Positions 2,931-51,451 of a stretch of 64,000 nt of DNA are shown here, piece after piece (position 1 is the stretch's first letter; each line of letters opens with the position of its first letter). The stretch is taken from contig LBRL01000001.1 in assembly GCA_000991405.1 (NCBI GenBank), positions 456,466 to 520,465 on the forward strand, in the 5' to 3' direction. The notes under the pieces were generated by a model. That model worked only from the letters and a program-made list of their open reading frames with translations. It searched no databases and was not told the DNA's origin. The stretch is from Candidatus Nomurabacteria bacterium GW2011_GWD2_36_14 (GTDB lineage Bacteria > Patescibacteriota > Minisyncoccia > Phycocordibacterales > UBA9973). A program made the position numbers and the translations under genes.

Positions 2931-2955
2931 ACATTAAGTATACCATATTTCCTGC

Positions 2956-3223: not shown

Positions 3224-3269
3224 CAAATTATATGGTATAATTATATTATTATTTAAATAATATAAATTT

Positions 3270-7225: not shown

Positions 7226-7234
7226 TTATAATTG

Positions 7235-7308
7235 TCCGTCCTCTAGGATTCGAACCTAGGACCCCAGAGGTATAAGCTCTGTGCTCTAACCAACTGAGCT
7301 AAGGACGG
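7235..7308 (-). tRNA. tRNA with anticodon UAU (AUA-decoding Ile-type)
   Basis: RC fold: acceptor CCGUCCU/AGGACGG + A73; D arm GCUC-AGUUGGUUA-GAGC; anticodon stem CAGAG/CUCUG, loop CUUAUAC; T arm CUAGG-UUCGAAU-CCUAG. Confidence 0.7.
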
Positions 7309-29769: not shown

Positions 29770-30537
29770 TTATATTTTCGTCAATATTTCTGCCTCTCCT
29801 TCAGTAATTAGAATAGTATGTTCAAAGTGAGCTGAGCGTGAACCGTCTGCTGTTTTGATAGTCCAGTCATCCGACGCACTGACAATCGAAGCCTTGCCAA
29901 TATTTAGCATTGGTTCTATGGCGATAATCATTCCCGGTATAAGCTTGACCCCTTTACCCTTTTTGCCATAGTTCGGTATATATGGATCTTCGTGTATCTT
30001 CACTCCGACTCCATGTCCCGAAAGCTCTCTGACTATACCGTACTTTCTGTTTACAAAGGATTCTATGGCGTGCCCAATATCCCCGACAGTAGCACCTCCC
30101 TGCGCTGCCCAAATGCCCACCTCAAGAGCTTTCTTCGTATAATCGAGAAGTTGCTGATCCTTCTTCGAAATCTTCCCTACAGCGACAGTGACAGCATGGT
30201 CAGTAAATAGTCCCTTGTATTCAAGCCCCAAGTCTAGAGAAACAATATCGCCTTCTTTTAATATTTTCGTTTTAGTAGGAATACCGTGAACTATCTCATT
30301 ATTCACTGATATGCAGATAGTAGCAGGGAAAGCCTTCGGAGCCCCTTCAGGCCTATAATTCAAAAAAGCAGGAATCCCTCCCTCTTTTATTATTAAATCA
30401 TGTGCATATTTATCAAGTTCGAAAGTCGAAATACCAGGCTTTGCCTTCTTGGCAACCTTATCCAATACCCTCGCCAGTATCTTCCCCCCTTCTCTTATAA
30501 TCTTTATTTGTTCTTTATTTTTTACAATAACCGTCAT
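29770..30537 (-). CDS. map: methionine aminopeptidase type I
   Basis: 255 aa; MTVIVKNKEQIKIIREGGKILA..., metal-ligand D/D/H/E/E pattern of MetAP-I. Confidence 0.85.
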   Translation of the reverse strand: MTVIVKNKEQIKIIREGGKILARVLDKVAKKAKPGISTFELDKYAHDLIIKEGGIPAFLNYRPEGAPKAFPATICISVNNEIVHGIPTKTKILKEGDIVSLDLGLEYKGLFTDHAVTVAVGKISKKDQQLLDYTKKALEVGIWAAQGGATVGDIGHAIESFVNRKYGIVRELSGHGVGVKIHEDPYIPNYGKKGKGVKLIPGMIIAIEPMLNIGKASIVSASDDWTIKTADGSRSAHFEHTILITEGEAEILTKI

Positions 30538-30662
30538 ATATCATCATACTATCCCAAAACCTCAATATAATCAAACCAATTCTCCCAGATAGAGCTCCGG
30601 GCCCTATCTGGGAGAGTGAATTCATTTACCAATCTAAACCTATGGGTTTGAGTTGGTAAAGA

Positions 30663-35751: not shown

Positions 35752-36180
35752 TTATTTTATACTTCCACCAGCTTTTTCAATCTTCTCTTTGGCAGTTTTA
35801 GAAGTGATACAATCAGTAATTGTTACTTTAACTGTAATCTCTCCATTGCCCAAGATTTTAACTTTTGGCAACTTGCCTCCAACTCGGCGGACTAGGTTAG
35901 CTTCGAATAAAGTTGCTGGACTTATTATAGCACCTGTAGCGAAAACATTGAGAGAACCAACATTCACAGGGGAAGCCTTTATATCGTGTGAAGCGAAACG
36001 GTAACCACGAAGCTTTGGAATCTTCTTGATGATGTCACGCATTTGTGGACGACGCTTGTTACCTGCACGAGCTGTCTGACCCTTGCCTCCACGTCCAGAA
36101 GTCTTACCACGTGTACCTCCACGTCCTACTTGTCGTGACTTTTTATTTGGATGTTCTCTTTTTAGTGTGTGTAATTGCAT
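35752..36180 (-). CDS. rplO: 50S ribosomal protein L15
   Basis: MQLHTLK...GRGGTRGKTSGRGGKGQ. Confidence 0.9.
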   Translation of the reverse strand: MQLHTLKREHPNKKSRQVGRGGTRGKTSGRGGKGQTARAGNKRRPQMRDIIKKIPKLRGYRFASHDIKASPVNVGSLNVFATGAIISPATLFEANLVRRVGGKLPKVKILGNGEITVKVTITDCITSKTAKEKIEKAGGSIK

Positions 36181-36187
36181 AAAATTA

Positions 36188-36895
36188 TTATTTAGTTACT
36201 TCTACTGCTATTTCCTTGGCTTCAACTTTAGCCTCTTCTTCTTGTTCTGCTATAAATGCAGCTACTTTAGGTAATGATGCTATCGCCTTTAATTGGTAAA
36301 GAGTCTTATAAGCAACTCTTGCATTGTTGAGCTTGTTCTTACTTCCTGAGTGAAGCTTGGCTGTAACATTCTTTAATCCTGCAAGGATTAGCATATCACG
36401 AACTGTACTTCCTGCTACAAGTCCCTTACCACGGTTTGGTCTGACAACAAGTTTTGAACTTGAGAACTTTGCAGAGACTTCATGAGTTATAGACATATCT
36501 TTAGTAGTCTTGATCTTGAACATATTCTTCTTGGCTTGGCGAAGAGCTTTGGCTATAGCTATGGCTGTGTCGCCTCCCTTACCTGTACCTAGTCCGATTG
36601 AGCCTTTCTTGTCACCGATAGCAAGCGCCACTGCGAAAGTCATACGACGTCCTCCAGCTACGACACGAGTAACGCGACGAATGGAGACCATCTTCTGATC
36701 AAATTCTGGCTTTGGTCTTTCAAAGAATGTTCTTGGCTTTCTTTCTCCTCCTTGACCCCCTTCACGCTTTGGGAAACGGTTACTAGATCCGAAACTTCTG
36801 TTTGGAGTGTTGGTTCTAGCGCCTGCTTGTGGACGTGGTGATGTTGGTGCTGGTGTTGTAGGTGTAGTATTTTGTTTTGGTGTTGTTGTATCCAT
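36188..36895 (-). CDS. rpsE: 30S ribosomal protein S5 with ~70-aa low-complexity N-terminal extension
   Basis: Core VSIRRVTRVVAGGRRMTFAVALAIGDKKG...; P/T/G-rich leader. Confidence 0.9.
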   Translation of the reverse strand: MDTTTPKQNTTPTTPAPTSPRPQAGARTNTPNRSFGSSNRFPKREGGQGGERKPRTFFERPKPEFDQKMVSIRRVTRVVAGGRRMTFAVALAIGDKKGSIGLGTGKGGDTAIAIAKALRQAKKNMFKIKTTKDMSITHEVSAKFSSSKLVVRPNRGKGLVAGSTVRDMLILAGLKNVTAKLHSGSKNKLNNARVAYKTLYQLKAIASLPKVAAFIAEQEEEAKVEAKEIAVEVTK

Positions 36896-37808: not shown

Positions 37809-38195
37809 TTACCACATTTTAAACAATACTTCTCCTCCGACCATTTCTTTACGGGCTTGCTTGTCTGTCATGATACCTTTAGGTGTAGAAAATACTGTGA
37901 TAAGGTTACCACCCTTTGTGTATCTGATATCTTTCATTCCTTTATAAACACGACGGGAGGACTTGGAAACGCGTTCTACTTCATTTACCTTTGGTGCTCC
38001 ATCTACATAAGCTATTCCAAGCTCAAGAATAGGGAAACCTTTCTTTGTCTTCTTTGTAGCAGAAGTTAAATATCCTTCTTTGACAAGACATTCGGCGATT
38101 GCATACTTTATTTTAGAAAATGGAACAGTAACGAACTCGTGACTAGCACGACCTCCATTCTTTACCATATTCACCATGTTTGCTATTTGATCCAT
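37809..38195 (-). CDS. rpsH: 30S ribosomal protein S8
   Basis: MDQIANMVNMVKNG... Confidence 0.9.
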   Translation of the reverse strand: MDQIANMVNMVKNGGRASHEFVTVPFSKIKYAIAECLVKEGYLTSATKKTKKGFPILELGIAYVDGAPKVNEVERVSKSSRRVYKGMKDIRYTKGGNLITVFSTPKGIMTDKQARKEMVGGEVLFKMW

Positions 38196-38208
38196 AATAT
38201 TGATTGTG

Positions 38209-38265
38209 CCATAGGTCAGACCTAGGGTCTTTAATTTATCTTTTGTCCCTAGGTCTGACCTATGG
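38209..38265. promoter_or_regulatory. 19-bp perfect inverted repeat with 19-nt loop between rpsZ stop and rpsH start (candidate translational operator/REP)
   Basis: CCATAGGTCAGACCTAGGG ... CCCTAGGTCTGACCTATGG. Confidence 0.5.
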
Positions 38266-38277
38266 GCCCTTATTTAT

Positions 38278-38463
38278 CTACCAACTTGATTTACGTACCC
38301 CCGGAAGCATACCTTCGTTTGCTAATTCACGGAAGCATATACGACAAAGACCGAAGTCTCTCATATAAGCATGACCTCGTGAACAACGAAAACAACGATT
38401 TGTTTCTCGTGTACTAAATTTTGACTTTTTTAAATGTCTTGCTGTTACTGATGTTTTTGCCAT
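38278..38463 (-). CDS. rpsZ: 30S ribosomal protein S14 type Z (zinc-binding)
   Basis: 61 aa, CxxC...CxxC (RCFRCSRGH...LCRICFRE). Confidence 0.9.
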
Positions 38464-38585
38464 AAATAAATTAACTTAAGGGTGAAAACCCTCCATAAGT
38501 AATGATATCTCGTTTATTTTCTTCCTAGTCCTTCCCTAATCTCTTTGAGACGGGCAAAGAAGGAGACAAACGGATCTAAAACTCA

Positions 38586-38625
38586 TGTAGCCCCATACTA
38601 GCAAATGAATGAAAAGATGTCAAAT
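38586..38625 (-). promoter_or_regulatory. sigma70-consensus promoter for rpsZ operon: TTGACA(38622-38617)-17-TAGTAT(38599-38594)
   Basis: Minus-sense AATTTGACATCTTTTCATTCATTTGCTAGTATG; near-identical module at 43352-43392. Confidence 0.6.
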
Positions 38626-39282
38626 TAAAAGAGAACATTGTCATAAAAAGCAATGTTCTCAGTTTTTTGTATATTATTTCTTTCTTAATACAAACCAAAT
38701 ACCAATAACGATACTTAGTCCATACCCCAATATAGACCCTACTAGGTTCCAATAAAAAGTAGAACCTGTTGTTATATAGCAACCATATTGGCACAACCCA
38801 CCAATAATGGCGAAATCAATAACAATAATCTGGATTGATTTTCTCTTTTTCATTTTCTGGTTTTTAATAGTTTATTTATTACTTTGCAGCACTTTTTACT
38901 GCCAAAAACATTAGCGTTCCTATAACTGCATTTATTATAAAAAAGAAAAATGCATTTATGAATTTTGCATCAATTTCCTGGTGGAAAAAATAAATTCCAC
39001 CGAACAAAGTTATGCAAAATATTAACACCATTAATACAGCAAGAATAGTTTTCATAATTCAATTATTTTGATTTATATTATTGTTACCTATTTCAAAAAT
39101 CCTCAAAAGACTCTTGAAATAGATAACAATTTATCCGCCGAAGAGGCCGAATTAGCCAAAAAGCTATATAAATCAACTAAAAACCAAAAATATCAAAGAA
39201 CTTAATACTCGTATAGTATAGCATATTTGAGTCAATTTGTCAATGATTTTTAAGGCACATTCAACCTCATTATCCAGTCCTA

Positions 39283-39375
39283 AGCCACGCTTAGGACTGA
39301 TACTTAAAACTAGCGACTGCCCCTGTTACCGAAGCCTTGCTTCGGTAAACCTTTATTTTTAAAGGATTTAATCTC
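39283..39375 (+). terminator. plus-strand tandem hairpins + T-run inside the rplE-rpsZ insertion (candidate antisense sRNA 3' end / bidirectional terminator)
   Basis: AGTCCTAAGC-CAC-GCTTAGGACT then TTACCGAAGC-CTTG-CTTCGGTAA followed by ACCTTTATTTTT. Confidence 0.35.
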
Positions 39376-39443
39376 AATTTTAGACAAAAAAATCAGCACT
39401 TATACCATAACGATACAAGTGCCTCATTTCTTAGATTTAAATT

Positions 39444-39770
39444 TTACTTAATGGAAACATCTCTCAAAAGCTCTTTTTCAACCTTCCTCTTTTTTTTATC
39501 AAGACCCAAAATAGTGATTTCACTATTCTTAGAAGTAAAATTATACTTTTTATACTTCCCATGAAATTCCTGCTTTTCGGTAAGGTAATAGAACCCACCA
39601 TTCTTAATTTTCCAAAAAGAAACTGTTACATTTTTGTGCTCAATAATTTTTGCTGGACTTAATACCAGCATTGTCTTCGTCAGCTCTCTAAAAATTCTTT
39701 CAGATTTTTTAGCACTAACTAACAAAGATAGCAAAAACAACACAACGATAATCATTACTCGCTTTTTCAT
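39444..39770 (-). CDS. small secreted hypothetical protein inserted in ribosomal cluster
   Basis: 108 aa, N-terminal signal peptide MKKRVMIIVVLFLLSLLVSA. Confidence 0.4.
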   Translation of the reverse strand: MKKRVMIIVVLFLLSLLVSAKKSERIFRELTKTMLVLSPAKIIEHKNVTVSFWKIKNGGFYYLTEKQEFHGKYKKYNFTSKNSEITILGLDKKKRKVEKELLRDVSIK

Positions 39771-39879
39771 AGTCTTTGGTTTTAAATTTATATATATACT
39801 TCCATTTTATAAGAAATTTGTCAAAGATTTTTATATCACAAAAATACCCCCTTTCGGGAGTATTTTAAAGTAATTTGTC

Positions 39880-40422
39880 TTACGCTTTCTTAAATGGTAC
39901 ACCTATCAGCTCAAAGAATTCTGTGGCTTCGGCTTTGGTCTTGGCTGTGGTTACAAGTGTAACTCCCATTCCGAATACGTCTTTCAATTCTTCGTCACCT
40001 GTTTCAGGGAAGATAGTATGCTCCTTGATACTCATAGTTAGGTTACCGATATTGTCCACAATCTTTCTTTCAATACCACGGAAGTCCTTTGTACGAGGGA
40101 TAGCTACGTTTATAAGCTTGTCTAGGAATCCATACATACGAGCTCCTCGAAGAGTTACCATGACTCCTACAGGGTCTCCAATACGAATCTTGAAGGATGC
40201 TATAGACTTCTTTGCACTCTTGGTAGCAGGCTTCTGGCCGGTAATCTTGGCAATACGTTCAATAACCATCTTGTTGTGATCCTTGTTGCGCTTTAGTCCT
40301 GAACCTGTGCCTGAAGCTACTATCACCTTTACAAGGTGAGGAGCAGCCATGACATTCTTGTAGCCATACTTGGCCTTAAGTGTACTATATGCTTTCTTTT
40401 CTTTTTGTTTTACTGTTTCCAT
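39880..40422 (-). CDS. rplE: 50S ribosomal protein L5
   Basis: sequence match. Confidence 0.9.
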   Translation of the reverse strand: METVKQKEKKAYSTLKAKYGYKNVMAAPHLVKVIVASGTGSGLKRNKDHNKMVIERIAKITGQKPATKSAKKSIASFKIRIGDPVGVMVTLRGARMYGFLDKLINVAIPRTKDFRGIERKIVDNIGNLTMSIKEHTIFPETGDEELKDVFGMGVTLVTTAKTKAEATEFFELIGVPFKKA

Positions 40423-40472
40423 TTTGTTTTGTGTTCGAATTATTAATTATTAATTATTAATTCTTAATTACT

Positions 40473-40691
40473 CTAGTCTTTCTTAGCAACATTTGATACG
40501 TGTATAGGCATTGCAATCTCAAGAATCTGACTCTGATCGCCCTTACCTTTTGCTTTATGGGCCTTCTTTCTCACGTTTACACCTTCCACAACAACCTTGT
40601 TTTCACTTGGCATAGCTTTGACAACCTTGCCACTTTTGCCTTTGTTGCTACCTGCGATAACTATTACATTGTCTCCTTTCTTTATTTTCAT
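40473..40691 (-). CDS. rplX: 50S ribosomal protein L24 (short, 72 aa, KOW)
   Basis: MKIKKGDNVIVIAGSNKGKSGKV. Confidence 0.85.
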   Translation of the reverse strand: MKIKKGDNVIVIAGSNKGKSGKVVKAMPSENKVVVEGVNVRKKAHKAKGKGDQSQILEIAMPIHVSNVAKKD

Positions 40692-40764
40692 ATATTTATC
40701 CGCCTAAATTTTAATACTAATACTTATGCCCTCCGTTGAAATTTTGTGAAAAATTTTGGCGGAT

Positions 40765-41136
40765 TTATATAACTTCTTGGGCTAATGAAATAATCTTTTG
40801 GTAACCCCTTTCAGCAAGCTCACGAGGGATAGGTCCGAATACGCGTCCACCCTTTGGATCCTGCTTGTCTTTTTCCAAGATTACAACAGCGTTGTCGTCA
40901 AAACGAATATATGAACCATCCTTACGGCGATATGACTTTACAGTACGGACTACGACAGCTTGGCAGACATCCTTTTTCTTCACACCCTTGCGAGGCTCAG
41001 CAATCTTGACTGAGATGATAACTTTGTCTCCAATACCTGCATAACGGCGTTTTGATGCGCCAAGTACCTTGAAAACCTTTCCGACTTTTCCGCCGGCGTT
41101 ATCTGTGATATTTACTACTGTTCCGTCTTGTATCAT
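40765..41136 (-). CDS. rplN: 50S ribosomal protein L14
   Basis: MIQDGTVVNITDNAGGK. Confidence 0.9.
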   Translation of the reverse strand: MIQDGTVVNITDNAGGKVGKVFKVLGASKRRYAGIGDKVIISVKIAEPRKGVKKKDVCQAVVVRTVKSYRRKDGSYIRFDDNAVVILEKDKQDPKGGRVFGPIPRELAERGYQKIISLAQEVI

Positions 41137-41142
41137 ATAATA

Positions 41143-41388
41143 TTAACTAATTACTTTAAAATGTTTATCCTTTGATATTGGTCTGACTTCTTCTATTTCT
41201 ACTACGTCGCCTACCTTCTTGGCATTGTCGGCATCGTGAGCTTTGTAGTTCTTGGTCTTCTTGATACGCTTACCGTACTTCTTGTGCTCAACAAAGCGAG
41301 TAACTTCTACGACAACAGTCTTGTCCATCTTGTCTGAGACAACTACTCCCTTGAGAACTTTATTTGATTTTTTAATTTTTGCTTCCAT
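41143..41388 (-). CDS. rpsQ: 30S ribosomal protein S17
   Basis: [19 protein letters not shown]. Confidence 0.9.
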
Positions 41389-41398
41389 ATTTTTTAAA

Positions 41399-41815
41399 TT
41401 ATCGTGCTACGATACAAGTTGTTACTGGTAATTTGGTTCCAGCCTTACGGAGAGCTTCTTTGGCTACTGCTTCCGTAACCCCATCTACTTCAAACAATAC
41501 TCGGCCTGGGCGAACGTCTAGACAGTATCCCTGAGGATCTCCTTTTCCTTTTCCCATTCCTACTTCTGCAGGCTTGGCTGTAAAAGGTCTGTCAGGAAAG
41601 ATGCGAATCCACATACGGCCAGTCTTACCAATTGTTCTAGATACTACCTTACGAGCTGATTCTATCTGATTTGAACGGACACGTCCACCTGCTGTGGCCT
41701 TAAGTCCAAATGATCCGAAAGCTATGGTAATACCACGTGTATCTGGAGTGACTTTCGTCATATCCGTCCTACCTGTCTGCCATTTTCTAAATTTTACTTT
41801 TTTTGGTGTTAACAT
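41399..41815 (-). CDS. rplP: 50S ribosomal protein L16
   Basis: [16 protein letters not shown]. Confidence 0.9.
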
Positions 41816-41821
41816 AAAATT

Positions 41822-42511
41822 TTATTGTTTATTATTCTTACTTCCAGTTGCTCCGCCTTCAGCCGAGAAAACTTCTCCACGATATATCCAGACCTTAATA
41901 CCGATATCTCCATAACTCATATGAGCCTTCTCACGAGCAAAGTCAACGTCAGCACGGAAAGTTTGCAAGGGAATAGAACCACGCTTGATCTGCTCACTAC
42001 GTGCGATTTCAGCACCTCCTAGACGGCCTCCAAGGTAGATACGAGCTCCTTTAACTCCACGAGCAGTCATAACCTTCTCAATAGTCTGCTTCATAACACG
42101 ACGGAATGGTAGACGCTTCTCAAGGCCTTCAGCAATCATACAAGCGACGATAGCTGCGTCTGCATCTGGGTTTGCAACTTCTACTATATCAAATTTGAAA
42201 TCTTCAGGAATTATAACGCCACGTTTCTTCATAGTAGAAACAAGGTCTGCCTTAAGCTTACTTGCTCCATCTCCACCACGGCCGATTATCATACCTGGGC
42301 GTGAAGTAAATACCATGACTTTTGTAGCTTTTACACCTCTGTCAATTTCTACACGAGAAACATAGAATCCACGAAGCTTCTTCATGAGGAACTCACGGAT
42401 AACAACATCACTCTTGAGTAAGTCTTTGTATTTCTTGTCAGCAAACCAGCGTGATTTCCAATCACGGAGTGTTACTAGTCTATGTGCATATGGATGGACA
42501 ACTTTTGACAT
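41822..42511 (-). CDS. rpsC: 30S ribosomal protein S3
   Basis: KH domain + S3 C-terminal domain, 229 aa. Confidence 0.9.
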   Translation of the reverse strand: MSKVVHPYAHRLVTLRDWKSRWFADKKYKDLLKSDVVIREFLMKKLRGFYVSRVEIDRGVKATKVMVFTSRPGMIIGRGGDGASKLKADLVSTMKKRGVIIPEDFKFDIVEVANPDADAAIVACMIAEGLEKRLPFRRVMKQTIEKVMTARGVKGARIYLGGRLGGAEIARSEQIKRGSIPLQTFRADVDFAREKAHMSYGDIGIKVWIYRGEVFSAEGGATGSKNNKQ

Positions 42512-42516
42512 ATAAA

Positions 42517-42951
42517 TTAATTTTCTGCTTTAACTTCTGGTTTTTTTGTTACCTTCGACTTCTTTACTACTTTTTCCTTTTTCTCTACTTTGTCTGTTTT
42601 TGAAACTTTCTTTGCTTTCTTTTCAACTGTTTTCTCTATAAGGGTAAGCATTATATGACTGGTACGCTTGTTGATACGTGAAGCTGATCCACGAGCACGT
42701 GGCATACTGCGCTTCATAACTATGCCTTTGTTTACAGTTACGTTCTCAACATATAAATTTTCAGGTGATATTCCTGAGTTCTTTGCATTTGCTACTGCAG
42801 AAGCCAACAACTGTTCTATTGGACCTGATGCTCTTCTTGGTAATGCTTTCAACTGAGTAAAAGCCTGTGCAACCCTATTGCCTTTGATTAAGTCTGCTAC
42901 AAGGCGAACCTTGCGAGGAGACTGTCTGTAATTTTTTAAAAATGCTTTCAT
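42517..42951 (-). CDS. rplV: 50S ribosomal protein L22 with K-rich C-terminal tail
   Basis: sequence match. Confidence 0.9.
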   Translation of the reverse strand: MKAFLKNYRQSPRKVRLVADLIKGNRVAQAFTQLKALPRRASGPIEQLLASAVANAKNSGISPENLYVENVTVNKGIVMKRSMPRARGSASRINKRTSHIMLTLIEKTVEKKAKKVSKTDKVEKKEKVVKKSKVTKKPEVKAEN

Positions 42952-42960
42952 ATAAGTTTA

Positions 42961-43305
42961 TTACTTCTTCTTGGTATCTGTTGCGGCTTTGGCTGATTTG
43001 GATGCGGTAATCTCGGCTTCTTTCTTCTTGGCTTCTAGTTCTTTCTGCATCTTACCTCCGTGTCTGACGAACTTGCGTGTTAGTGAGAATTCTCCAAGTC
43101 TGTGTCCCACCATATCTTCACTGACGAGTACTTCTACATGAACCTTGCCATTGTGGACTCCAAATACGAAGCCTACCATTTCAGGGGAGATCACACATGC
43201 TCGTGACCATGTCTTAATAACGCCTGTTTCTAGAGGTTTCTTTCCAGCAATTTTTTTCAAAAGCCTTTCGTCTACATATGGTCCTTTTTTAAGTGATCTT
43301 GTCAT
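42961..43305 (-). CDS. rpsS: 30S ribosomal protein S19 with K/A-rich C-terminal tail
   Basis: [12 protein letters not shown]...[13 protein letters not shown]. Confidence 0.9.
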
Positions 43306-43351
43306 TTGGTTTTGTATCTACAATATAAATAAGCTCCTTTGAGCTCGTTGG

Positions 43352-43392
43352 TTCATACTAGCAAATGAAAGAATATATGTCAAATTCAAATT
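43352..43392 (-). promoter_or_regulatory. sigma70-consensus promoter for rpsS operon: TTGACA(43383-43378)-17-TAGTAT(43360-43355)
   Basis: Minus-sense AATTTGACATATATTCTTTCATTTGCTAGTATG; shares CATTTGCTAGTATGAAC with 38586-38625 copy. Confidence 0.6.
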
Positions 43393-43404
43393 TTTGGAAT
43401 TAGA

Positions 43405-43797
43405 TTAAAACACCAAAGCTATTACTTTAGGTCCAAAGATTAAGAGCCCTATAACCCCTGCTACAATAGTAGCAATAGAAACAGCCCCAGCAGCTACATC
43501 TTTAGTATCTCTAGCATACGGATGGTAGTTTGGGCTGGTAAGATCTATGTCTATCTCTATTGCTGTGTTAAATGCTTCAGCAATTACAACTAGTCCAATA
43601 GCGAGTATAACTACTGCCCACTCAACAGAAGATAAAGAAAAAACAAAACCCATATATATAGCTAAAATTGCAAAGAATAGATGTATCCATAAATTATGAG
43701 TTGTCTTAATAAAAACTCCCAACCCACGAAGACCATGATTAGTGCTTTTGAAACGAGAAATAATTGAAAACCTCTTTTTCTCTGATATTTTTTCCAT
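43405..43797 (-). CDS. dgkA: diacylglycerol kinase / undecaprenol kinase family membrane protein (DgkA-like)
   Basis: 3 TM; signature AEAFNTAIEIDIDL and DTKDVAAGAV. Confidence 0.6.
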   Translation of the reverse strand: MEKISEKKRFSIISRFKSTNHGLRGLGVFIKTTHNLWIHLFFAILAIYMGFVFSLSSVEWAVVILAIGLVVIAEAFNTAIEIDIDLTSPNYHPYARDTKDVAAGAVSIATIVAGVIGLLIFGPKVIALVF

Positions 43798-44002
43798 GTT
43801 TGTATTATATACTCAAAAATGCAAAAGAAAAACCTTGGTCATAAAACGATCAAGGTTTTCTGATTAAATTTATTCCCCGGTTTAAAAGAACACCAAAACT
43901 TTTATTTTCCGGGCAGGAATCTATTTTACGGAAAACTCCCACAACGTTTGGCCTTTTATTGTTATGAAAGACCGAAATCTATTACTTTTTCATAGGCAAC
44001 AA

Positions 44003-44200
44003 TTATTTTTTAAATAAAAAATCTTCAGACTTTCTGTCTGGAGAGGTAAAATGGATTTCTTTACTTCTTGCAAATAACTTTGGAGATATACGTCCTAAGA
44101 CAATCCCCAAACAAAAAATAATTATATCCCAATAATTAAACGGGGTATAAATAAAAATATAAAATACAATACAAACCACAAATATTAAAATAATTTTCAT
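44003..44200 (-). CDS. small hypothetical membrane protein
   Basis: 65 aa, two hydrophobic helices; inserted between rplB and dgkA-like. Confidence 0.3.
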   Translation of the reverse strand: MKIILIFVVCIVFYIFIYTPFNYWDIIIFCLGIVLGRISPKLFARSKEIHFTSPDRKSEDFLFKK

Positions 44201-44329
44201 AGCGCTAGGTATTATTGGTTTATTTTTTTCAATTTCATTCTAAGCTTATAGTTTATACACAATTTGTCAATACAACAAAAAATTCCCTTTCGGGAATTTT
44301 TTGTTGATAGAGATTTTTGTTTTTTAAAC

Positions 44330-45187
44330 TTAAGCTTTCTTTGACTTTCCAACTTTTCTTCGAGAAACAATCCACATGTTTGAATATTTCTTTGGAGTAC
44401 GAGTCTTCTGGCCTTTTCCTGATGGCTTACCCCACATAGTCTTGGCACGGCGTAGACCTCTTCCTTGGCGTCCTTCACCTCCACCGTGTGGGTGGTCTAC
44501 TGGGTTCATGGCTGTACCACGAACTGTAGGGCGAATTCCTTTCCAGCGAGAGCGTCCTGCTTTACCAAAGTTTTGAAGCTTGAATTCACTGTTTGAAACT
44601 TCACCGATAGATGCCCAAGCATTTTCTGAAACTTTGCGTACTTCTGTAGAAGGCATTTTGACGTTGGTATATCCAAGGTCATTCGCGACTACTTGTCCGA
44701 AGGTTCCAGCTCCGCGAGCAAGCTTTCCTCCGTTACCTGGCTTAATTTCTACATTGTAAACAAATGTTCCAACTGGTATTAGCTTAAGAGGTAAACGATT
44801 CCCAACTGTTAGAGGAGCTTTCTCGGAAACGATAAACTTGTCTCCAACTTTAACTGTTTTAGGTATCACTACGTATCTCTTCTCTCCGTCTGCATAAACT
44901 GCGATACCGATAAAGGCATTGCGGTTTGGATCGTATTCGATAGAAGCTATCTTGGCAGGAATGTCGTGCTTGTTGTACATGAAGTCTATCTCTCTGTAAA
45001 GTCTCTTGTGTCCACCCCCTTTATGTCGAGTAGTTATACGTCCCTGATTGTTACGTCCGACAGATCTTTTGAAACCATGAGTTAAAGCTTTCAAGGGCTC
45101 ACTTGTAGTTAAAACTTTTCTGTAAGTAACGGTAGTCTGGTGACGCTTTGATGGTGTTGTAGGTTTGTATGTTTTCATATTATGCAA
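44330..45187 (-). CDS. rplB: 50S ribosomal protein L2
   Basis: sequence match; 8-nt overlap with rplW. Confidence 0.95.
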   Translation of the reverse strand: MHNMKTYKPTTPSKRHQTTVTYRKVLTTSEPLKALTHGFKRSVGRNNQGRITTRHKGGGHKRLYREIDFMYNKHDIPAKIASIEYDPNRNAFIGIAVYADGEKRYVVIPKTVKVGDKFIVSEKAPLTVGNRLPLKLIPVGTFVYNVEIKPGNGGKLARGAGTFGQVVANDLGYTNVKMPSTEVRKVSENAWASIGEVSNSEFKLQNFGKAGRSRWKGIRPTVRGTAMNPVDHPHGGGEGRQGRGLRRAKTMWGKPSGKGQKTRTPKKYSNMWIVSRRKVGKSKKA

Positions 45188-45512
45188 TTGCTATCTTATC
45201 ACCCTTCTTCAAATATACGACCGCTTTCTTCCCTCCCTTTTTCGTTCCAATTATTCCACGACGAACTACTGTCTTTGAAGTAATCTTGGTAGTAGAAACT
45301 CGCAAAGGAGTAACTCCGTAGATAAGCTTGATAGCTTTCTTAATCTCATTCTTGGTAGCATTATCGGTCACATTGAAAGTATAAATTCCTTTCTCTGCGC
45401 CTAGTGCTGCCTTTTCTGTAATGCGAGGACTCTTGATCAAAGGGTGGGTCTTTGCTTTTTTACTATCAACTACCTCTTCTTTTGTATTCTTTTTTGTTTT
45501 TGTTGTTGCCAT
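45180..45512 (-). CDS. rplW: 50S ribosomal protein L23
   Basis: sequence match. Confidence 0.85.
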   Translation of the reverse strand: MATTKTKKNTKEEVVDSKKAKTHPLIKSPRITEKAALGAEKGIYTFNVTDNATKNEIKKAIKLIYGVTPLRVSTTKITSKTVVRRGIIGTKKGGKKAVVYLKKGDKIAIA

Positions 45513-45518
45513 ATAATA

Positions 45519-46187
45519 TTATTTTTTTTCTGTTTTGCCACCTAGGAATGCGACACTTTCAGTTGGCTGTGAAATAATAATATATCGGTAAGCTAGCAAA
45601 TCAACAGGATTCATGTTGCGAACCTCATCGATCTCTACTGTAGGAATATTTGCAAAACTCTTCTTAAGAACGTCTCCCTTTGCAGGAACTGAAATGTAAG
45701 TATTTGGCTTCTTGCCTCCTACCATTCTTTCAAATCCTTTGATACCGCTCAAATCTTTCATGACAGCTACTGCGTCTTTCGTCTTAATAGCCTTAAGATT
45801 CAATTCTTCTACAAAGATTAGCTGGCCCTTTCTTAGCTTCTCTGAGAGAACAGTGTAGAGAGCTTTTGCTTTCATTTTCTTGTTTATTTTCTGATCGTAA
45901 ACTTTGTCATTTCTTGGTCCATGGGTGACTCCTCCACCTTTCCAGATTGGAGAACGTGTTGAACCATGACGAGCTCGTCCTGTACCTTTCTGTTTCCATG
46001 GCTTCTTACCTCCTCCGCGAACTTCTCCACGTGTCTTTGTATGAGCAACTGGTGTGCGAGCATTGGCTTGCATAGCAGTCACTACTTGGTGAACCAAGTC
46101 ACCATTCCAAGGAACACCAAAGATTGATTCTGGGAGTTCAAATTTGCCTACGGACTTACCTTTTTGGTTATATATTTGTGTTTCCAT
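45519..46187 (-). CDS. rplD: 50S ribosomal protein L4
   Basis: sequence match. Confidence 0.9.
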   Translation of the reverse strand: METQIYNQKGKSVGKFELPESIFGVPWNGDLVHQVVTAMQANARTPVAHTKTRGEVRGGGKKPWKQKGTGRARHGSTRSPIWKGGGVTHGPRNDKVYDQKINKKMKAKALYTVLSEKLRKGQLIFVEELNLKAIKTKDAVAVMKDLSGIKGFERMVGGKKPNTYISVPAKGDVLKKSFANIPTVEIDEVRNMNPVDLLAYRYIIISQPTESVAFLGGKTEKK

Positions 46188-46233
46188 ATAATTTAGCCCT
46201 AAACTTATAGTCGGGCGATCAATAGTAATTGAT

Positions 46234-46866
46234 TTAGCCGATTATTTCTACGAGCGTTCCGCGTCTTCCTGGAATCGCACCTTTAATAAGTAATTGGTTA
46301 TTTTCGACATCAACACCAACAATTTCCAAATTTCTAACTGTAATACGGTCGCTACCCATACGGCCTCCCATGCGCATTCCCTTTGGAACTTTGTTGCGGA
46401 GACCTCCACCGATAGAACCGGGTTCACGTTCTGAGTGCTTCTGTCCGTGTGAACGTGGTCCTCCATGGAATCCATGACGCTTCACAACGCCTTGGAAACC
46501 TTTTCCTTTTGAAATACCTGTAACAGTTACAATGTCTCCCTTTTTAAATGCGGAAACTGTGATTCTGTCACCTGTGGCCATTTCTTCAATGTCTCGGAAT
46601 TCACGAAGATGCTTGAAAGCACCTTCACCCTCTACTGTGCTATCGCTACTTTTTGCGGATTTGATATGTCCAAGATGTGCCTTTGTCGCACGATTTTCTT
46701 TCTGTTCTTCGAAGGCTACTTGCACTGCTACATAGCCATCGACATCAGGGCTTTTCATTTGAGTGACGACAATAGGTCCAGCAGAAATAACTGTAGTTGG
46801 AACTACTTGTCCATCATCTAGAAAGCACTGCATCATATGCTGTTTTTTACCAAGGATAAATTTCAT
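46234..46866 (-). CDS. rplC: 50S ribosomal protein L3
   Basis: sequence match. Confidence 0.9.
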   Translation of the reverse strand: MKFILGKKQHMMQCFLDDGQVVPTTVISAGPIVVTQMKSPDVDGYVAVQVAFEEQKENRATKAHLGHIKSAKSSDSTVEGEGAFKHLREFRDIEEMATGDRITVSAFKKGDIVTVTGISKGKGFQGVVKRHGFHGGPRSHGQKHSEREPGSIGGGLRNKVPKGMRMGGRMGSDRITVRNLEIVGVDVENNQLLIKGAIPGRRGTLVEIIG

Positions 46867-46870
46867 ATTA

Positions 46871-46950
46871 GTATATAGGGTATAGTGTAAAGCGTATAGG
46901 GGGTGAAATTCAAAATCACTGTTCCCTTTACTCTATTCACTGTTCCCTTG
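46871..46950. repeat. ~80-nt 5'-UTR element upstream of rplC (copy 1)
   Basis: GTATATAGGGTATAGTGTAAAGCGTATAGGGGGTGAAATTCAAAATCACTGTTCCCTTTACTCTATTCACTGTTCCCTT; ~85% identical to 47334-47411. Confidence 0.65.
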
Positions 46951-46955
46951 TTAAT

Positions 46956-47324
46956 CTACATCATCTTCACGTCGATATCAACACCAGATGGTAGAGATAA
47001 GCTTGTGAGAGCTTCAATAGTCTTAGGATTTGGATTCAGGATGTCAATAACGCGTTTATGTATTCTGATTTCGAATTGTTCACGAGCATTCTTAAACACA
47101 AAAGATGCTCTGTTGACTGTGTATTTCTTAATTTCGGTAGGAAGTGGAATTGGTCCGACAATCTTTGCATCGTAGCGAAGAGCGGTATCAATAATCTGCT
47201 TGACGGATGCGTCAAGAATCTTATTCTCGTATGCTCTTACGCGTATACGAAGCTGGACAACTGCGTCTTCTTTCCCCTTCTTTGTTTTTGCTACACCTAC
47301 TGGTGCATTTGTCTTTGTTGTCAT
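46956..47324 (-). CDS. rpsJ: 30S ribosomal protein S10
   Basis: sequence match. Confidence 0.9.
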   Translation of the reverse strand: MTTKTNAPVGVAKTKKGKEDAVVQLRIRVRAYENKILDASVKQIIDTALRYDAKIVGPIPLPTEIKKYTVNRASFVFKNAREQFEIRIHKRVIDILNPNPKTIEALTSLSLPSGVDIDVKMM

Positions 47325-47333
47325 AGTAATTTA

Positions 47334-47411
47334 GTGTATAGGGTACAGTACAAAGCGTATAGAGAAGATTCAAAATCACTATTCCCTTTACTCTATTCGC
47401 TATTCCCTTCT
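47334..47411. repeat. ~80-nt 5'-UTR element upstream of rpsJ (copy 2)
   Basis: GTGTATAGGGTACAGTACAAAGCGTATAGAGAAGATTCAAAATCACTATTCCCTTTACTCTATTCGCTATTCCCTT. Confidence 0.65.
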
Positions 47412-47413
47412 TG

Positions 47414-48613
47414 CTATTTAATGATCTTTGTTACAACACCAGCACCAACTGTTTTACCTCCTTCACGGATAGCAAAGTGCATAGTTTCTTCAAGAGCAAC
47501 TGGGGTTACAAGTTTAACTCCTAGTTTAACTGTATCTCCTGGCATAACCATTTCTACTCCGGCTGGTAATGTAGACTCACCTGTAACGTCTGTTGTACGG
47601 ATATAGAACTGAGGCTTGTATCCTGTGAAGAATGGTGTGTGACGTCCTCCTTCTTCCTTTTTCAAAATGTAAACTTCACATTCGAATTCTGAGTGAGGAG
47701 TAACTGTTCCTGGCTTTACTAGAACTTGTCCACGAGTTACATCTTCCTTCTTGATTCCACGGATAAGGATTCCAGCATTATCGCCAGCCATACCTTGCTT
47801 CAAATTTTTGTTGAACATTTCAATACCAGTAACTGTTGTCTTGGCTGTATCTTTAATACCAACGATTTCAACATCTTCACCAACATTGATAACTCCACGT
47901 TCGATCTTACCAGTCACAACTGTTCCACGTCCTTCGATTGAGAATATATCCTCAATAGGCATTAGGAATGGCTTTGTAACATCACGTTCTGGAACTGGAA
48001 TATAAGTATCAAGAGCATTTACAAGGTCAAGGATCTTAGTTGCCCATTCATTTGTATTGTCAGCTGATTCAAGAGCCTTAAGAGCTGAACCACGGATAAC
48101 TGGAGCATTTGCACCATCAAATCCTTGCTTTGTAAGAAGTTCACGAACTTCTTCTTCAACTAGTTCAAGCATATCAGGATCATCAACCATGTCGCACTTG
48201 TTTAGGAATACGATAATCTTAGGAACGTTCACTTGCTTTGCTAGAAGGATGTGCTCACGTGTCTGTGGCATAACTCCGTCTGTAGCAGCAACTACGATAA
48301 CTGCACCGTCCATTTGAGCGGCACCTGTAATCATGTTCTTAATATAGTCGGCGTGTCCTGGAGCATCGATGTGAGCGTAGTGACGTGTTGGTGTCCAGTA
48401 CTCATTGTGAGAAAGAGCGATCGTGATACCACGAGCCTTTTCTTCAGGAGCTGAGTCGATTTGATCGACACCTTTAATCTTCGCACCATATTCACCACCT
48501 TGTCTTGCTAAAATCTGCAAAATAGCCGCGGTTAGTGTAGTTTTCCCATGATCGACGTGACCAATAGTACCTACGTTTACGTGAGGCTTATCTCTTTTAA
48601 ATTCTTCTGCCAT
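47414..48613 (-). CDS. tuf: elongation factor Tu
   Basis: [19 protein letters not shown]; 399 aa. Confidence 0.95.
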
Positions 48614-48898
48614 ATGAATTATTGGTTGATAAACGTAACAAAGTATACGAGAACCTTACTTTATTATATTTACCAACATAAATTATTAATAAATGTTTCG
48701 TTTCAAACGAAACTACGCAAAAATTGCGATTGACTCTCATCGTAGCAAATATAAGAATAATGTCAACCTCCACACCTACTTTTTCATTATTGTGTTTTTA
48801 ACTATAAAAAATCAATAAAATAAACAATATTTATATATTAAATATCTCAAAAAAATATAATAGTGACACAATAAAAACTATGAAAAAGTGGGTGTGGG

Positions 48899-48932
48899 GG
48901 TCAAATGCCCGACGCCTACGGCGTCGGGCATT
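48899..48932. terminator. 14-bp GC-rich hairpin downstream of surface-protein gene (terminator)
   Basis: AAATGCCCGACGCC-TACG-GCGTCGGGCATTT. Confidence 0.5.
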
Positions 48933-48952
48933 TGTATTTATTGCCTCATTCC

Positions 48953-51451
48953 CTAATTTTCTATATATATCGGATCTATATTCCCTACTTTAATTTCAGG
49001 GCATAGGAAAGGAAGAGAATCTATTCCCCCCTTACTACAAACTATACTATATCTTACTGTCTTTGCAGGCCAAAGAGTCTTGTTTCCTGATGAAGAACCC
49101 GTCCCTCCCAATAAATCTGTAGTAGAGCTACCAGCATACATCTCACAAGATGTAGCATCTGTCGAAGTCCAAGCTACATTCACAGAATCACCTGAATTTA
49201 TCTTAGTATTATTTGGAGTACAAGAAGTAACAACCGGCGAAGTTGATACTACTGGTGGAGTTGTAAATTGTTTAATTAATCCCCAACCATGACCCAAAGA
49301 ATTTGCGGCGAAAGCCCGAACATTATAAGTAGTGTTAGGTAATAATAAAGAATAGTTACTAGCAAAATTTCCCATACCTGCACCATCTATTTTTCTAAGC
49401 ATAAGGTTCTCAGGGTCATTAGGTGCTACATCCCAAGCTACTCCTCTTACAAGGACTGACAGTCCTCCACTATTTGTAACATTACCCCCCAGTATTGCAC
49501 TAGTTGAAGTTACACTTGTAGGAACTGAAGTTGTAACTGTTGGAACGGTATTGAATCCACTACATGCACTTGCTACTGTTCCAGACACTAAAGATGATGA
49601 AGCAGAATCCCCTGAAGCATTAGTGGCTTTAACTGTGTATGAATGAGTTGAATCAAGAGCAAGACCATCATCAGACCCACGACATGTACCATCTGAACAA
49701 TTATTGTAAGACGCTAGAGTAGAAGCCATTATAGGAGTTGCACTTCCATCTTTATAAACTTTATAATTTGTTGCACCTGTTGATGGTGTCCAGGCTAGGT
49801 TCAACCAAGAATTATTACAAGCACTGGGTGATACAGTAAGGTTTGTTGGGGTGGGTGGTGGGGTACAACCTGATACTAGTTTTGAAATTGTTGCAGTCCC
49901 AGAAGTTCCATTTGGTCCCATCGCTGTAAGATTATACGTATAAGTATTCCCTACAGTAAGTCCAGAATCTACAAAAGAATTTGCTGGGCCTGTATATCTA
50001 GGAGCACCAACACCAACTCTAAACAATTGATAAGTAGTAGCGGTTGGAACAAGATCCCATGATAAAGATAAGGACGTACTTCCACAAGCACTTTGAACTG
50101 CTTGAAAGTTTGTAGGAGTAGCAGTCTGATTAGATACAATCACATCAGTCCAAGAACTACAGTTATCATTTTCATTGGCAACTGATCCTTCGTTGATAGT
50201 TCCACTGTTTCCAGAAGAACTTTTGTCTGCACAAGCTCGTACTGAATATGTTCCTGCTGTTATAAATTTATGAGTAGTTTGAGCAACTGTAGCTGGACCT
50301 GTCCCACCGACAGCAAGTGCTGTCATAGAAGAAGAAGGCTTATCAGTTATAGTAGAAGTAGCAGGACAAATTCCTGCCTGAGAAGCAGTAGAACATATTT
50401 GGAAAAAATTGTTAAAACTTGCACCAGTTGAAGCTGTACCCTCATTTGAGATTGTAGAAGAGAATGTTGTGTCAACATTCAACATTGCCCAATTTGGAGT
50501 TGGAGCAGAAGCCTTAAGATTAGGATAAGGAGTTGCTAGTGTTTTGAAAGTTCCATTAGAAGATACTGATCCATTAGTAGAATAAGTGAGTCCTTTATCA
50601 TTCTCAGCTTTTCCACGGAAATAATAAGTAGTATTGGGAGTTAGTCCTGTAGCATCAAAGAAGAAAGTGCCCATGCCTGTGCCCGCTGAATAACAACTTG
50701 TAGAATTAAGTGCAAGTCCATAACAAATAGATCTGGAAACAGGAGGGTCATTGCCATCTGAAGTAACATTAGCAGATAGTCTTGCAGAAGTAGATGTAAT
50801 GTTAGTAGCTGGCTCTATAAGGAGTATAGAAGGAGGAAATGTACCTGCATTAAACGTTACAATACAAGTCTTACTTGAATCCATAGTTACTTGGCCATTA
50901 GCACAATTAGCTGACCAACTACTAAATGCATAACCTGAACCAGCAGACTGGGCAAGAGTAACTGAAGTTCCTGAAGGATATGATCCTGTACAATCAGCTC
51001 CACACGAGATAGCCCCAACAGTAGGAATATCAGATGTCACCGTCCCCGTCCCTACCTTAGTTATAGTGAGAGTATAATTAGTTGCTGCACCAAACGTTGC
51101 GGTACAATTTTTATTGGCATTATTATTGGCACTCATGGTAACAGTACCAAGTGACCCACAGTCTCCACCCCAGACTACTGTAGGTGAATTAGCTGTTATA
51201 GAAACTGCTCCTGTATTTAGAGGATATGTCTCGGTACAAGTAAGGGTTCCAGCTCCACAAACCTTACCAGTATCAAAAGTTATTATCCCAGTATTAGCCC
51301 CTGCCCCCAACTTTGTAACAGTAAGAATAGGATTTGGAGTCACGGTTACTGTTACCTTACTTCCTCCGTTTGTAGCACTAACAGAAGAAATACCTGTGAT
51401 GAAAAATGCAAGGAGAATAAATAAAAATATTTTTATGGTTTTCATATACAA
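48953..51451 (-). CDS. large secreted surface protein with InlB-B-repeat-like module and fibronectin type III-like domains; T/S/G/N-rich
   Basis: Signal peptide; TLTITKVGTGTVTSDIPTVGAISCGADCTGSYPSGTSVTLAQSA (InlB B-repeat-like); Fn3-like TNLTVSPSACNNSWLNLAWTPSTGATNYKVYKDG. Confidence 0.55.
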   Translation of the reverse strand: MYMKTIKIFLFILLAFFITGISSVSATNGGSKVTVTVTPNPILTVTKLGAGANTGIITFDTGKVCGAGTLTCTETYPLNTGAVSITANSPTVVWGGDCGSLGTVTMSANNNANKNCTATFGAATNYTLTITKVGTGTVTSDIPTVGAISCGADCTGSYPSGTSVTLAQSAGSGYAFSSWSANCANGQVTMDSSKTCIVTFNAGTFPPSILLIEPATNITSTSARLSANVTSDGNDPPVSRSICYGLALNSTSCYSAGTGMGTFFFDATGLTPNTTYYFRGKAENDKGLTYSTNGSVSSNGTFKTLATPYPNLKASAPTPNWAMLNVDTTFSSTISNEGTASTGASFNNFFQICSTASQAGICPATSTITDKPSSSMTALAVGGTGPATVAQTTHKFITAGTYSVRACADKSSSGNSGTINEGSVANENDNCSSWTDVIVSNQTATPTNFQAVQSACGSTSLSLSWDLVPTATTYQLFRVGVGAPRYTGPANSFVDSGLTVGNTYTYNLTAMGPNGTSGTATISKLVSGCTPPPTPTNLTVSPSACNNSWLNLAWTPSTGATNYKVYKDGSATPIMASTLASYNNCSDGTCRGSDDGLALDSTHSYTVKATNASGDSASSSLVSGTVASACSGFNTVPTVTTSVPTSVTSTSAILGGNVTNSGGLSVLVRGVAWDVAPNDPENLMLRKIDGAGMGNFASNYSLLLPNTTYNVRAFAANSLGHGWGLIKQFTTPPVVSTSPVVTSCTPNNTKINSGDSVNVAWTSTDATSCEMYAGSSTTDLLGGTGSSSGNKTLWPAKTVRYSIVCSKGGIDSLPFLCPEIKVGNIDPIYIEN

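Follow-up and report, generated by a model that had tools for sequence, protein, structure and literature searches.

A 64,000-nucleotide stretch of the genome of Candidatus Nomurabacteria bacterium GW2011_GWD2_36_14 (contig LBRL01000001.1, positions 456,466 to 520,465; 35% G+C), here called the window and numbered from its first letter, contains two nearly identical minus-strand sequences in front of the ribosomal-protein genes rpsZ (zinc-type S14) and rpsS (S19). Our sequence comparisons indicate that these are probably the core promoters of units 3 and 2, respectively, of a ribosomal-protein cluster transcribed in several units, and that both are old and conserved; from the same comparisons we infer an occasional exchange of the promoter core and a repression of unit 3 by protein S8. 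As a comparative sample we used a search with RpsC, which gave 80 loci (individual loci carry L numbers) from species-level genomes labelled Nomurabacteria, Paceibacteria or Patescibacteria, with 69-96% identity. The elements of the two sites are as follows.

38625..38591, minus strand: P_rpsZ core (site 1), reading AATTTGACATCTTTTCATTCATTTGCTAGTATGGGG
38618..38623, minus strand: P_rpsZ -35 hexamer TTGACA, exact consensus; TTGAC(A/T) in 60-61 related loci
38601..38617, minus strand: P_rpsZ 17-nt spacer TCTTTTCATTCATTTGC, with the extended -10 TG at 38603-38602
38595..38600, minus strand: P_rpsZ -10 hexamer TAGTAT, exact match
43385..43351, minus strand: P_rpsS core (site 2), reading AATTTGACATATATTCTTTCATTTGCTAGTATGAAC
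43378..43383, minus strand: P_rpsS -35 hexamer TTGACA, exact consensus; conserved in 70 loci
43361..43377, minus strand: P_rpsS 17-nt spacer TATATTCTTTCATTTGC, rpsZ type
43355..43360, minus strand: P_rpsS -10 hexamer TAGTAT, exact match

These features support the reading of both sites as putative sigma-70-type promoters with a consensus -35, a 17-nt spacer and a TG extended -10: each has TG at -15/-14, with TGC directly before TAGTAT. A first-pass annotation of the window had described them as TTGACA-17-TAGTAT upstream of the S14 and S19 genes, and both the motif, exact at either site, and the gene assignments (Pfam E values of 2.4e-22 and 1.7e-32) hold. The distances to the start codons, quoted there as ~120 and ~45 nt, come to 131 nt (rpsZ) and 49 nt (rpsS) when counted from the last base of the -10, giving predicted leaders of ~125 and ~43 nt. 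The sites are identical at 30 of 33 ungapped positions, including 14 of the 17 spacer positions, and have the blocks AATTTGACAT (10 nt) and TTCATTTGCTAGTATG (16 nt) in common. Near-identity as such had been correctly noted, but the sequence TTTCATTTGC occurs only at site 2, site 1 having ATTCATTTGC, and the supposedly identical downstream bases reduce to one shared G, with GAAC following only site 2 and GGGG following site 1. The identity ends 3 nt upstream of the -35, in an AAT that is the general consensus at this place, and 1 nt (the G) downstream of the -10.

Promoter-like hexamer pairs are common in the window with its 35% G+C (55 found against 45 expected), and with up to two mismatches the full pattern is no more frequent there than in shuffled sequences, so that a chance resemblance of two AT-rich intergenic sequences has to be considered. 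We give it a negligible probability: sites 1 and 2 are the sole exact matches to TTGACA-17-TAGTAT with TG in the 64 kb, and the 14-mer CATTTGCTAGTATG occurs exactly twice, compared with a shuffle mean of 0.45 even when two mismatches are allowed. Both sites are, moreover, conserved across dozens of species.

In the related loci, a promoter with the pattern TTGAC(A/T), 16 or 17 nt, TGn, TAnnnT stands before rpsS in 70 loci (median distance from -10 to ATG ~39 nt), before rpsZ in 60-61 (~123 nt) and before tuf in 24-25 (~126 nt). The window has this third promoter as well:

48739..48766, minus strand: P_tuf, TTGACA-TTATTCTTATATTTGC-TACGAT, with a 16-nt spacer

Sequence logos reach 2 bits per position at the hexamers and the TG and fall to ~0.1-0.6 bits in the 10 nt that precede the -35; the TG shows no variation, but it also served to select the sequences for the logos. 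Spacers of the orthologues are 16 or 17 nt and no other length, even sister genomes have unrelated DNA ahead of the -35, and the conserved leaders begin right after the -10. The consensus of the class is TTGAC(A/T), a T-rich spacer, (T/C)TG(C/A) and TAGTAT. Two subtypes can be distinguished. The tuf/rpsS subtype reads TTGACt-TTATTTTtAnATTTGc-TAGTAT, the 16-nt spacer being itself conserved, and in most relatives the P_rpsS spacer is the 16-nt TTATTTTTATATTTGC. The P_rpsZ subtype has TTGACA, 17 nt and TAGTAT followed by agGGGgAC, and its spacer is conserved only next to the -10 (tATcTGc or ttcatttgc). The -10-adjacent ATTTGC is common to the rpsS, rpsZ and tuf promoters.

The use of this class is narrow. 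Of the TG-type promoters in the loci, 117 have TAGTAT as their -10, and almost all of these stand before rpsS, rpsZ or tuf; the 18 others, belonging to inserted genes, have TATACT, TATTAT or TATAAT behind AAATATGC. An exact search of the entire metagenome collection with the 28-mer of the tuf/rpsS subtype returned 39 sites, every one ahead of rpsS (23, and 1 more that is cut off), tuf (14) or rpsZ (1). There is thus strong comparative evidence that P_rpsS, P_rpsZ and P_tuf form one putative promoter class dedicated to three translation units, from which the promoters of the inserted, or cargo, genes differ (TTGACAAAT..AAATATGC-TATAyT). The class resembles the extended -10 promoters of sigma-70 and sigma-A, including the Gram-positive '-16 TRTG' type, in its TTGACA, 16-17-nt spacer, TG, T-12, A-11 and T-7. 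Unlike the sigma-70 norm, the -10 is held as TAGTAT (G-10, T-9) in more than 100 orthologous and paralogous promoters without drift to TATAAT, and the whole T-rich spacer TTATTTTTATATTTGC of the tuf/rpsS subtype is conserved across species. The promoters are mechanistically ordinary, and what is unusual is the fixed TAGTAT together with the conserved T-rich spacer of the tuf/rpsS subtype.

The cargo promoters make up a second class, TTGACAAAT(T/G)...ttAAATATGC-TATAyT, with examples on the minus strand of the window at 39215-39243, 39796-39824 and ~44245-44270 and others in L005, L011 and L022.

In the window, the promoters divide the ribosomal-protein genes into three units, separated by two gaps that hold open reading frames (ORFs) of other kinds. 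All of the following lie on the minus strand.

Unit 1: tuf-rpsJ-rplC-rplD-rplW-rplB, headed by P_tuf
Gap 1 (rplB|rpsS): a 65-aa membrane ORF and dgkA
Unit 2: rpsS-rplV-rpsC-rplP-rpsQ-rplN-rplX-rplE
Gap 2 (rplE|rpsZ): ORFs of 108, 58 and 59 aa
Unit 3: rpsZ-rpsH-rplF-rplR-rpsE-rplO-secY-adk and onward
38278..38463: rpsZ (zinc-type S14, 61 aa; PF00253, 2.4e-22), first gene of unit 3
42961..43305: rpsS (S19), first gene of unit 2
43405..43797: dgkA (diacylglycerol kinase, 1.8e-31), in gap 1
44275..44304: terminator after rplB (A-tract, hairpin, U-tract), fold -16.1 kcal/mol, z = -5.5
39841..39866: terminator after rplE (A-tract, hairpin, U-tract), fold -13.8 kcal/mol, z = -3.35
38631..38660: terminator ending the unit of the 59-aa ORF, fold -13.1 kcal/mol, z = -5.45

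The terminators after rplB and rplE were missed by the promoter and terminator scanner; folded directly, both are strong hairpins with U-tracts, and no shuffled sequence folds as well. The inserted genes sit between these two terminators and the restart promoters. Before rpsZ the arrangement is tighter still: the terminator at 38631..38660 has a U-tract, UUUUAAUUU, that leads straight into the P_rpsZ -35. In relatives, too, similar hairpins precede this promoter. The proposal that the ribosomal cluster is restarted at rpsZ and rpsS is thus supported by terminators, cargo and conserved promoters at a fixed distance, in full only for rpsZ. The interval from dgkA to P_rpsS, when folded, gave no significant hairpin and no terminator, which limits the complete restart to rpsZ; rpsS could also be reached by read-through from dgkA, and P_rpsS may be supplementary to this, a point that counts against the restart reading at rpsS.

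Both breaks, rplB|rpsS and rplE|rpsZ, are present in every related locus that spans the region. The gap from rplB to rpsS ranges from 218 to 5707 nt (median 1484, n=56) and that from rplE to rpsZ from 163 to 3584 nt (median 1215, n=63), and together the gaps of the relatives contain 244 ORFs of at least 80 aa in 132 clusters. The gene dgkA is found in 47 gap-1 regions; other cargo includes pyrE-, pyrF- and pyrC-like genes, cytidylate kinase, a pilin-like protein and many unknowns. Judged from these loci, the cluster is permanently split at the two positions in the Nomurabacteria/Paceibacteria clade of the Candidate Phyla Radiation (CPR). The cargo of the window itself is of no use for tracing insertions and appears lineage-specific, as tblastn with its 65-, 58- and 59-aa ORFs against the 80 loci found zero homologues and the 108-aa ORF had its sole match in L022, at 44%.

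In the S10-spc-alpha cluster of E. coli, promoters lie before rpsJ, rplN and rpsM, and each unit has its own strong promoter and autoregulatory protein. The CPR cluster is similar in that one long ribosomal-protein array is transcribed as several units. It differs in the positions of the breaks, which are rpsQ|rplN and rplO-secY|rpsM in E. coli, in that its breaks hold terminators and variable non-ribosomal cargo, and in that tuf heads the first unit without rpsL-rpsG-fusA upstream. In the window, no rpsL-rpsG-fusA was found upstream of tuf, and the gene upstream of P_tuf encodes a non-translation fn3 protein.

Some smaller features of the cluster may be recorded here. The gap between rplP and rpsQ is 10 nt (41388-41399) with no L29 gene between them, the same being seen in L091, and there is no L30 gene between rpsE and rplO (36180-36188). 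Absence of L30 is typical of CPR. Within gap 2, a hairpin-rich non-coding stretch at 39250-39430 on the minus strand (CCGAAGCAAGGCUUCGG, CAGUCCUAAGCGUGGCUUAGGACUG) separates the terminator of the 108-aa ORF from a strong promoter at 39243 and has no Rfam match.

The proximity of changing cargo to the conserved blocks raises the question of whether the 30-nt blocks are primarily promoters at all, or instead recombination or attachment sites, or operators of a regulator, that would explain the abutting cargo. The cargo does change directly upstream of the -35 even between the sisters L010 and L011, two ORF families occur in both gaps, and one cargo ORF has a weak IS200-like match (E = 4e-4, below the Pfam cut-off). 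The positions that are conserved, however, are exactly those of sigma-70 promoters, namely the -35, the fixed spacing of 16 or 17 nt, the TG, T-12, A-11 and T-7, and the blocks stand at a fixed distance from conserved 5' leaders. No repeat of the block is found on the other side of the cargo, an integrase or recombinase is not consistently present, and the cargo consists mostly of ordinary metabolic genes. Attachment or recombination sites for the cargo were rejected on two grounds, the lack of a recurring recombinase and the exact match of the conserved positions to promoter elements, and the non-promoter explanation as a whole is in our judgement highly improbable.

The first-pass annotation had explained the likeness of the two sites by a promoter cassette copied together with its flanks, which would have created a new restart point at one of the positions. 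The resemblance is indeed high, and among 54 genomes the rpsS and rpsZ spacers are most alike in the window and in its closest relative, L003, which stand out with 11 of 14 positions. A recent duplication is nevertheless very unlikely. The claimed shared flanks are absent, as the identity stops at AAT on one side and a single G on the other and the flanks of the two promoters are unrelated in all relatives. Each downstream leader is orthologous to the leader of its own gene, and promoters occupy both orthologous positions in essentially all of the ~80 relatives that cover these sites, including those with an RpsC identity as low as 69%. Since both promoters have orthologues across the clade, neither was made by a recent copy, and the restart points long predate the genome of the window. 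On this comparative evidence P_rpsS and P_rpsZ are old orthologous elements, and most of the identity between them is constraint on shared functional positions.

Constraint leaves an excess of spacer identity in the window, which arises because its rpsS promoter carries a 17-nt spacer of the rpsZ type. Such a spacer, ending in ttcatttgc, appears before rpsS at three separate places in a neighbour-joining tree of the rpsS-to-rplE DNA: in the window and L003; in L006, but not in its sister L001, which has the usual 16-nt spacer; and in L011, but again not in its sister L010, where the usual form goes with a P_rpsZ spacer identical to that of L011. Each of these places falls inside the subclade whose P_rpsZ ends in ttcatttgc. 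Scored on a position weight matrix of the P_rpsZ spacers of this subclade, the rpsS spacers of the window, L003, L006 and L011 reach 11-19 bits, ordinary P_rpsS spacers averaging 3.4 and not exceeding 5.5 bits; on the P_rpsS matrix, the four score -1.5 to 12.6 and the ordinary spacers a mean of 15. The nearest neighbour of the window P_rpsS spacer is the P_rpsZ spacer of L063, with 16 of 17 positions identical. The reverse case is seen in the metagenome contig L091, in which a full tuf/rpsS-type core precedes a normal rpsZ leader. We consider it plausible that a promoter core of ~30 nt has been swapped between the sites on several occasions, bounded by the shared hexamers.

Several observations weigh against such an exchange. 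Similarity of the rpsS and rpsZ spacers is no greater within a genome (5.63 of 14 positions) than between genomes (5.71 of 14; 54 genomes, permutation p = 0.69), which led us to drop the idea of a blanket homogenisation of the promoters; for rpsS against tuf spacers there was a weak signal (p = 0.017). The exchange hypothesis depends on ~17 nt, the spacer of the window is ambiguous between the two matrices (12.6 bits for rpsS and 16.8 for rpsZ), and the tree comes from one 3.4-kb region that is itself possibly recombinant.

The short tract and the ambiguous case of the window keep convergence a serious rival. Under it, a 1-nt insertion and a few substitutions would have given the 17-nt rpsS spacer ...TTCATTTGC, with selection acting on the same RNA polymerase contacts and no exchange of DNA. 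The window P_rpsS spacer is one indel and three substitutions away from the ancestral 16-nt spacer and still scores 12.6 bits on the rpsS matrix, and the ATTTGC shared by all three promoter classes together with the missing genome-wide signal of concerted evolution would fit this explanation; in L006 and L011, too, the upstream half of the 17-nt rpsS spacer resembles neither class. Convergence has more difficulty with a switch to the rpsZ type that occurred at least three times and only in the subclade whose own P_rpsZ ends in ttcatttgc, with L010 and L011, whose P_rpsZ spacers are identical and whose P_rpsS spacers are completely different, and with the full 28-nt tuf/rpsS core at rpsZ in L091, given that the upstream part of the P_rpsZ spacer otherwise carries 0.0-0.5 bits. 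We regard convergence alone as possible but rather unlikely. An ectopic exchange of the ~30-nt core in a recent ancestor, through gene conversion or a template switch, would be the most likely cause of the rpsZ-type spacer. It would resemble the ectopic gene conversion known from, for example, rrn operon promoters, in that same-strand paralogous promoters a few kilobases apart sporadically carry the other subtype. Unlike in rrn-type homogenisation, the tract would be only ~30 nt long and bounded by identities of 6-11 nt, there is no general within-genome homogenisation, and conversion is here a putative event, suggested by the distribution on the tree.

Downstream of P_rpsZ, the conserved leader has features of its own, which are these.

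38464-38594, minus strand: whole rpsZ 5' leader, between the P_rpsZ -10 and the ATG
38494..38587, minus strand: structured leader core P0-P1-P2, predicted fold
38577-38573 (5' side, A-G-A-U-C) and 38509-38504 (3' side, G-A-U-A-U-C), minus strand: S8-like internal loop
37809..38195, minus strand: rpsH (S8), second gene of unit 3 and proposed ligand

The leader of the window is predicted to fold into one long irregular hairpin (P0-P1-P2, 38587-38494) and a small 3' hairpin. RNAalifold on an alignment of 48 sequences recovered P1 and P2, with compensatory changes in 12 of 17 pairs. Of the cells in the alignment, 95.8% are paired and 118 are compensatory, compared with 34 +/- 5 in shuffled alignments and at most 26 in slid controls, and the covariation score was not reached by any of 500 shuffles. 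An Rfam search of the whole window at gathering thresholds, and of 38000-49200 at E <= 10, gave no match to a leader or in the promoter regions and merely chance microRNA-like matches to hairpins. By the Rfam test the leader is a new family, and its motif is not among the 20 ribosomal leaders of PMC7247131.

P1 has an invariant asymmetric loop at its base, 5'-(A)GAUC against 5'-GAUAUC. In the register proposed by RNAalifold, which pairs AUC with GAU, this part of the structure has zero compensatory changes and contains A-C mismatches; we rejected that register and adopted that of the S8 site in 16S rRNA helix 21, since only the S8-like register has compensatory changes. Using the definition of the site in PMC4176348 and E. 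coli numbering, the 57 leaders read as follows.

U598: invariant in 57 leaders
C599-G639: invariant in 57 leaders
A640-N641-A642: AUA in 55, ACA in 2 of 57 leaders
Pair 596-644: G-C in 51, A-U in 3, C-G in 3 of 57 leaders
Pair 597-643: A-U in 52, G-C in 5 of 57 leaders

The features given for the S8 site in PMC4176348 are U598 opposite A640-N641-A642, with A642 invariant, and the pairs 596-644 and 597-643, which form base triples. In the leaders, these two pairs are Watson-Crick in 57 of 57 and change by double substitutions. Three distant members, L067, L070 and L078, have C596-G644 together with G597-C643, and L067 and L070, with G595 added, equal the T. thermophilus form of the site quoted in the same work. 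The S8 protein of the window carries FSTPKGIMTD at the position of the S-T-S RNA-contact motif described there for E. coli S8, and thus retains S-T. Leader, rpsZ and rpsH are on the same strand, and no terminator is predicted from the leader to rpsH except a hairpin in the rpsZ-rpsH spacer.

As the invariant loop reproduces the S8 site of helix 21, we propose the rpsZ leader as a candidate for S8 autoregulation, and a feedback role of this kind is in our assessment somewhat probable. The likeness to the helix 21 site and to its counterpart in E. coli spc mRNA comprises the asymmetric loop with a bulged U598 opposite A640-U641-A642, the flanking Watson-Crick pairs 596-644 and 597-643, closure by C599-G639 and location on an mRNA that encodes S8. 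The site is placed differently, in the 5' leader before rpsZ rather than at the start codon of rplE, its overall fold differs, and a second invariant loop (CUCC / GAAAA) and the helices P0 and P2 have no counterpart in E. coli. Less favourable to an S8 feedback leader are the pair 597-643, A-U in most leaders and usually G-C in 16S rRNA, an extra unpaired base beside G639, and the position of the site 30-40 nt upstream of a rpsZ AUG that has no Shine-Dalgarno sequence. No rRNA lies within the window.

Taken together, the data are consistent with the following course of transcription. Unit 1, from tuf to rplB, would end at its terminator, followed by the cargo of the 65-aa ORF and dgkA; P_rpsS would restart transcription into rpsS to rplE; and after a second terminator, the cargo of the 108-, 58- and 59-aa ORFs and a further terminator, P_rpsZ would restart it into rpsZ-rpsH-rplF and onward. 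The transcript from P_rpsZ would begin with a structured leader of ~125 nt with a loop that mimics the helix 21 binding site of S8 in 16S rRNA, and S8 in excess would bind this loop and repress unit 3. The combined proposal of three units around two permanent cargo slots, TAGTAT modules with an occasionally exchanged core and an S8-mimic leader on unit 3 has, in our view, close to an even chance of being right in all its parts.

Almost nothing is known of the transcription signals and gene regulation of uncultured CPR/Patescibacteria, and a literature search on their promoters and transcription start sites found no relevant paper. Promoter prediction and expression tools for these organisms could start from the consensus TTGAC(A/T), 16 or 17 nt, TGn, TAGTAT of highly expressed translation genes. 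The ribosomal-protein block that is treated as 'universally syntenic' in phylogenomics appears to tolerate two stable insertion slots with turnover of ordinary genes. The S8-like leader, if true, would extend ribosomal-protein feedback to CPR as the first ribosomal-protein autoregulatory RNA defined there, and S8 feedback would have been re-invented independently, a convergent use of S8 at a mRNA position other than that in E. coli.

Other leaders and palindromes of the cluster deserve mention. The 5' untranslated region (UTR) of rpsS contains one short hairpin:

43331..43346, minus strand: rpsS 5'-UTR hairpin GAGCUC-AAAG-GAGCUU, z = -2.5

It starts ~8 nt after the -10, and almost every relative has it, some with a different stem (for example GGCUC/GAGCU); in the window UTR (43306-43354) it is followed by an AU-rich tract, with no Shine-Dalgarno sequence near the AUG. 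The tuf leader (48614-48738, minus strand; ~125 nt behind P_tuf) is conserved across relatives and has no Rfam match. It begins with GAGAGUCAAUCG, after which come variable hairpins, AAUUUAUGUUGGUA and, ending just before the AUG, a helix GUUGGUA...UAUCAACC, and may be another ribosomal-protein leader, for example for L4. The rpsZ-rpsH spacer (38199-38270, minus strand) is filled by an almost perfect hairpin of ~20 bp (CCAUAGGUCAGACCUAGGG...CCCUAGGUCUGACCUAUGG); in relatives the spacer is 1-135 nt long, and L008, L010, L011 and L014 have other CTAG-rich palindromes there, which suggests small palindromic insertion elements or processing sites. CTAG repeats (ACTAGT, CTAGAAACTAG) are also found between the conserved core and the start codon in the rpsZ leaders of L001, L017, L022, L025 and L055 and may be the same kind of element.

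Promoter-like sequences occur elsewhere in the window. On the minus strand, a TTGATT-17-TAGTAT sequence at 30546-30574 ends 8 nt before the start codon of map (methionine aminopeptidase, 29770-30537) and may be a fourth, weaker promoter of the TAGTAT type giving a nearly leaderless mRNA. A plus-strand TTGACA-17-TATACT at 12816-12868 has a perfect palindrome, TATACCCCCTAGGGGTATA, as its spacer and looks like an operator overlapping a promoter, and a divergent TTGACA...TGCTATTCT promoter lies at 12356-12328.

Outside the ribosomal cluster, the window contains a tRNA-Ile with anticodon UAU (7234-7308, minus strand) and a divergent pair of tRNA-Ser genes (2954-3041, minus strand; 3137-3224, plus strand), one of which was called with the unusual anticodon ACU. 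Just downstream of the cluster, 26828-29563 on the minus strand encodes a 911-aa protein with type IV secretion coupling-protein domains (TrwB/TraG/VirD4-like).

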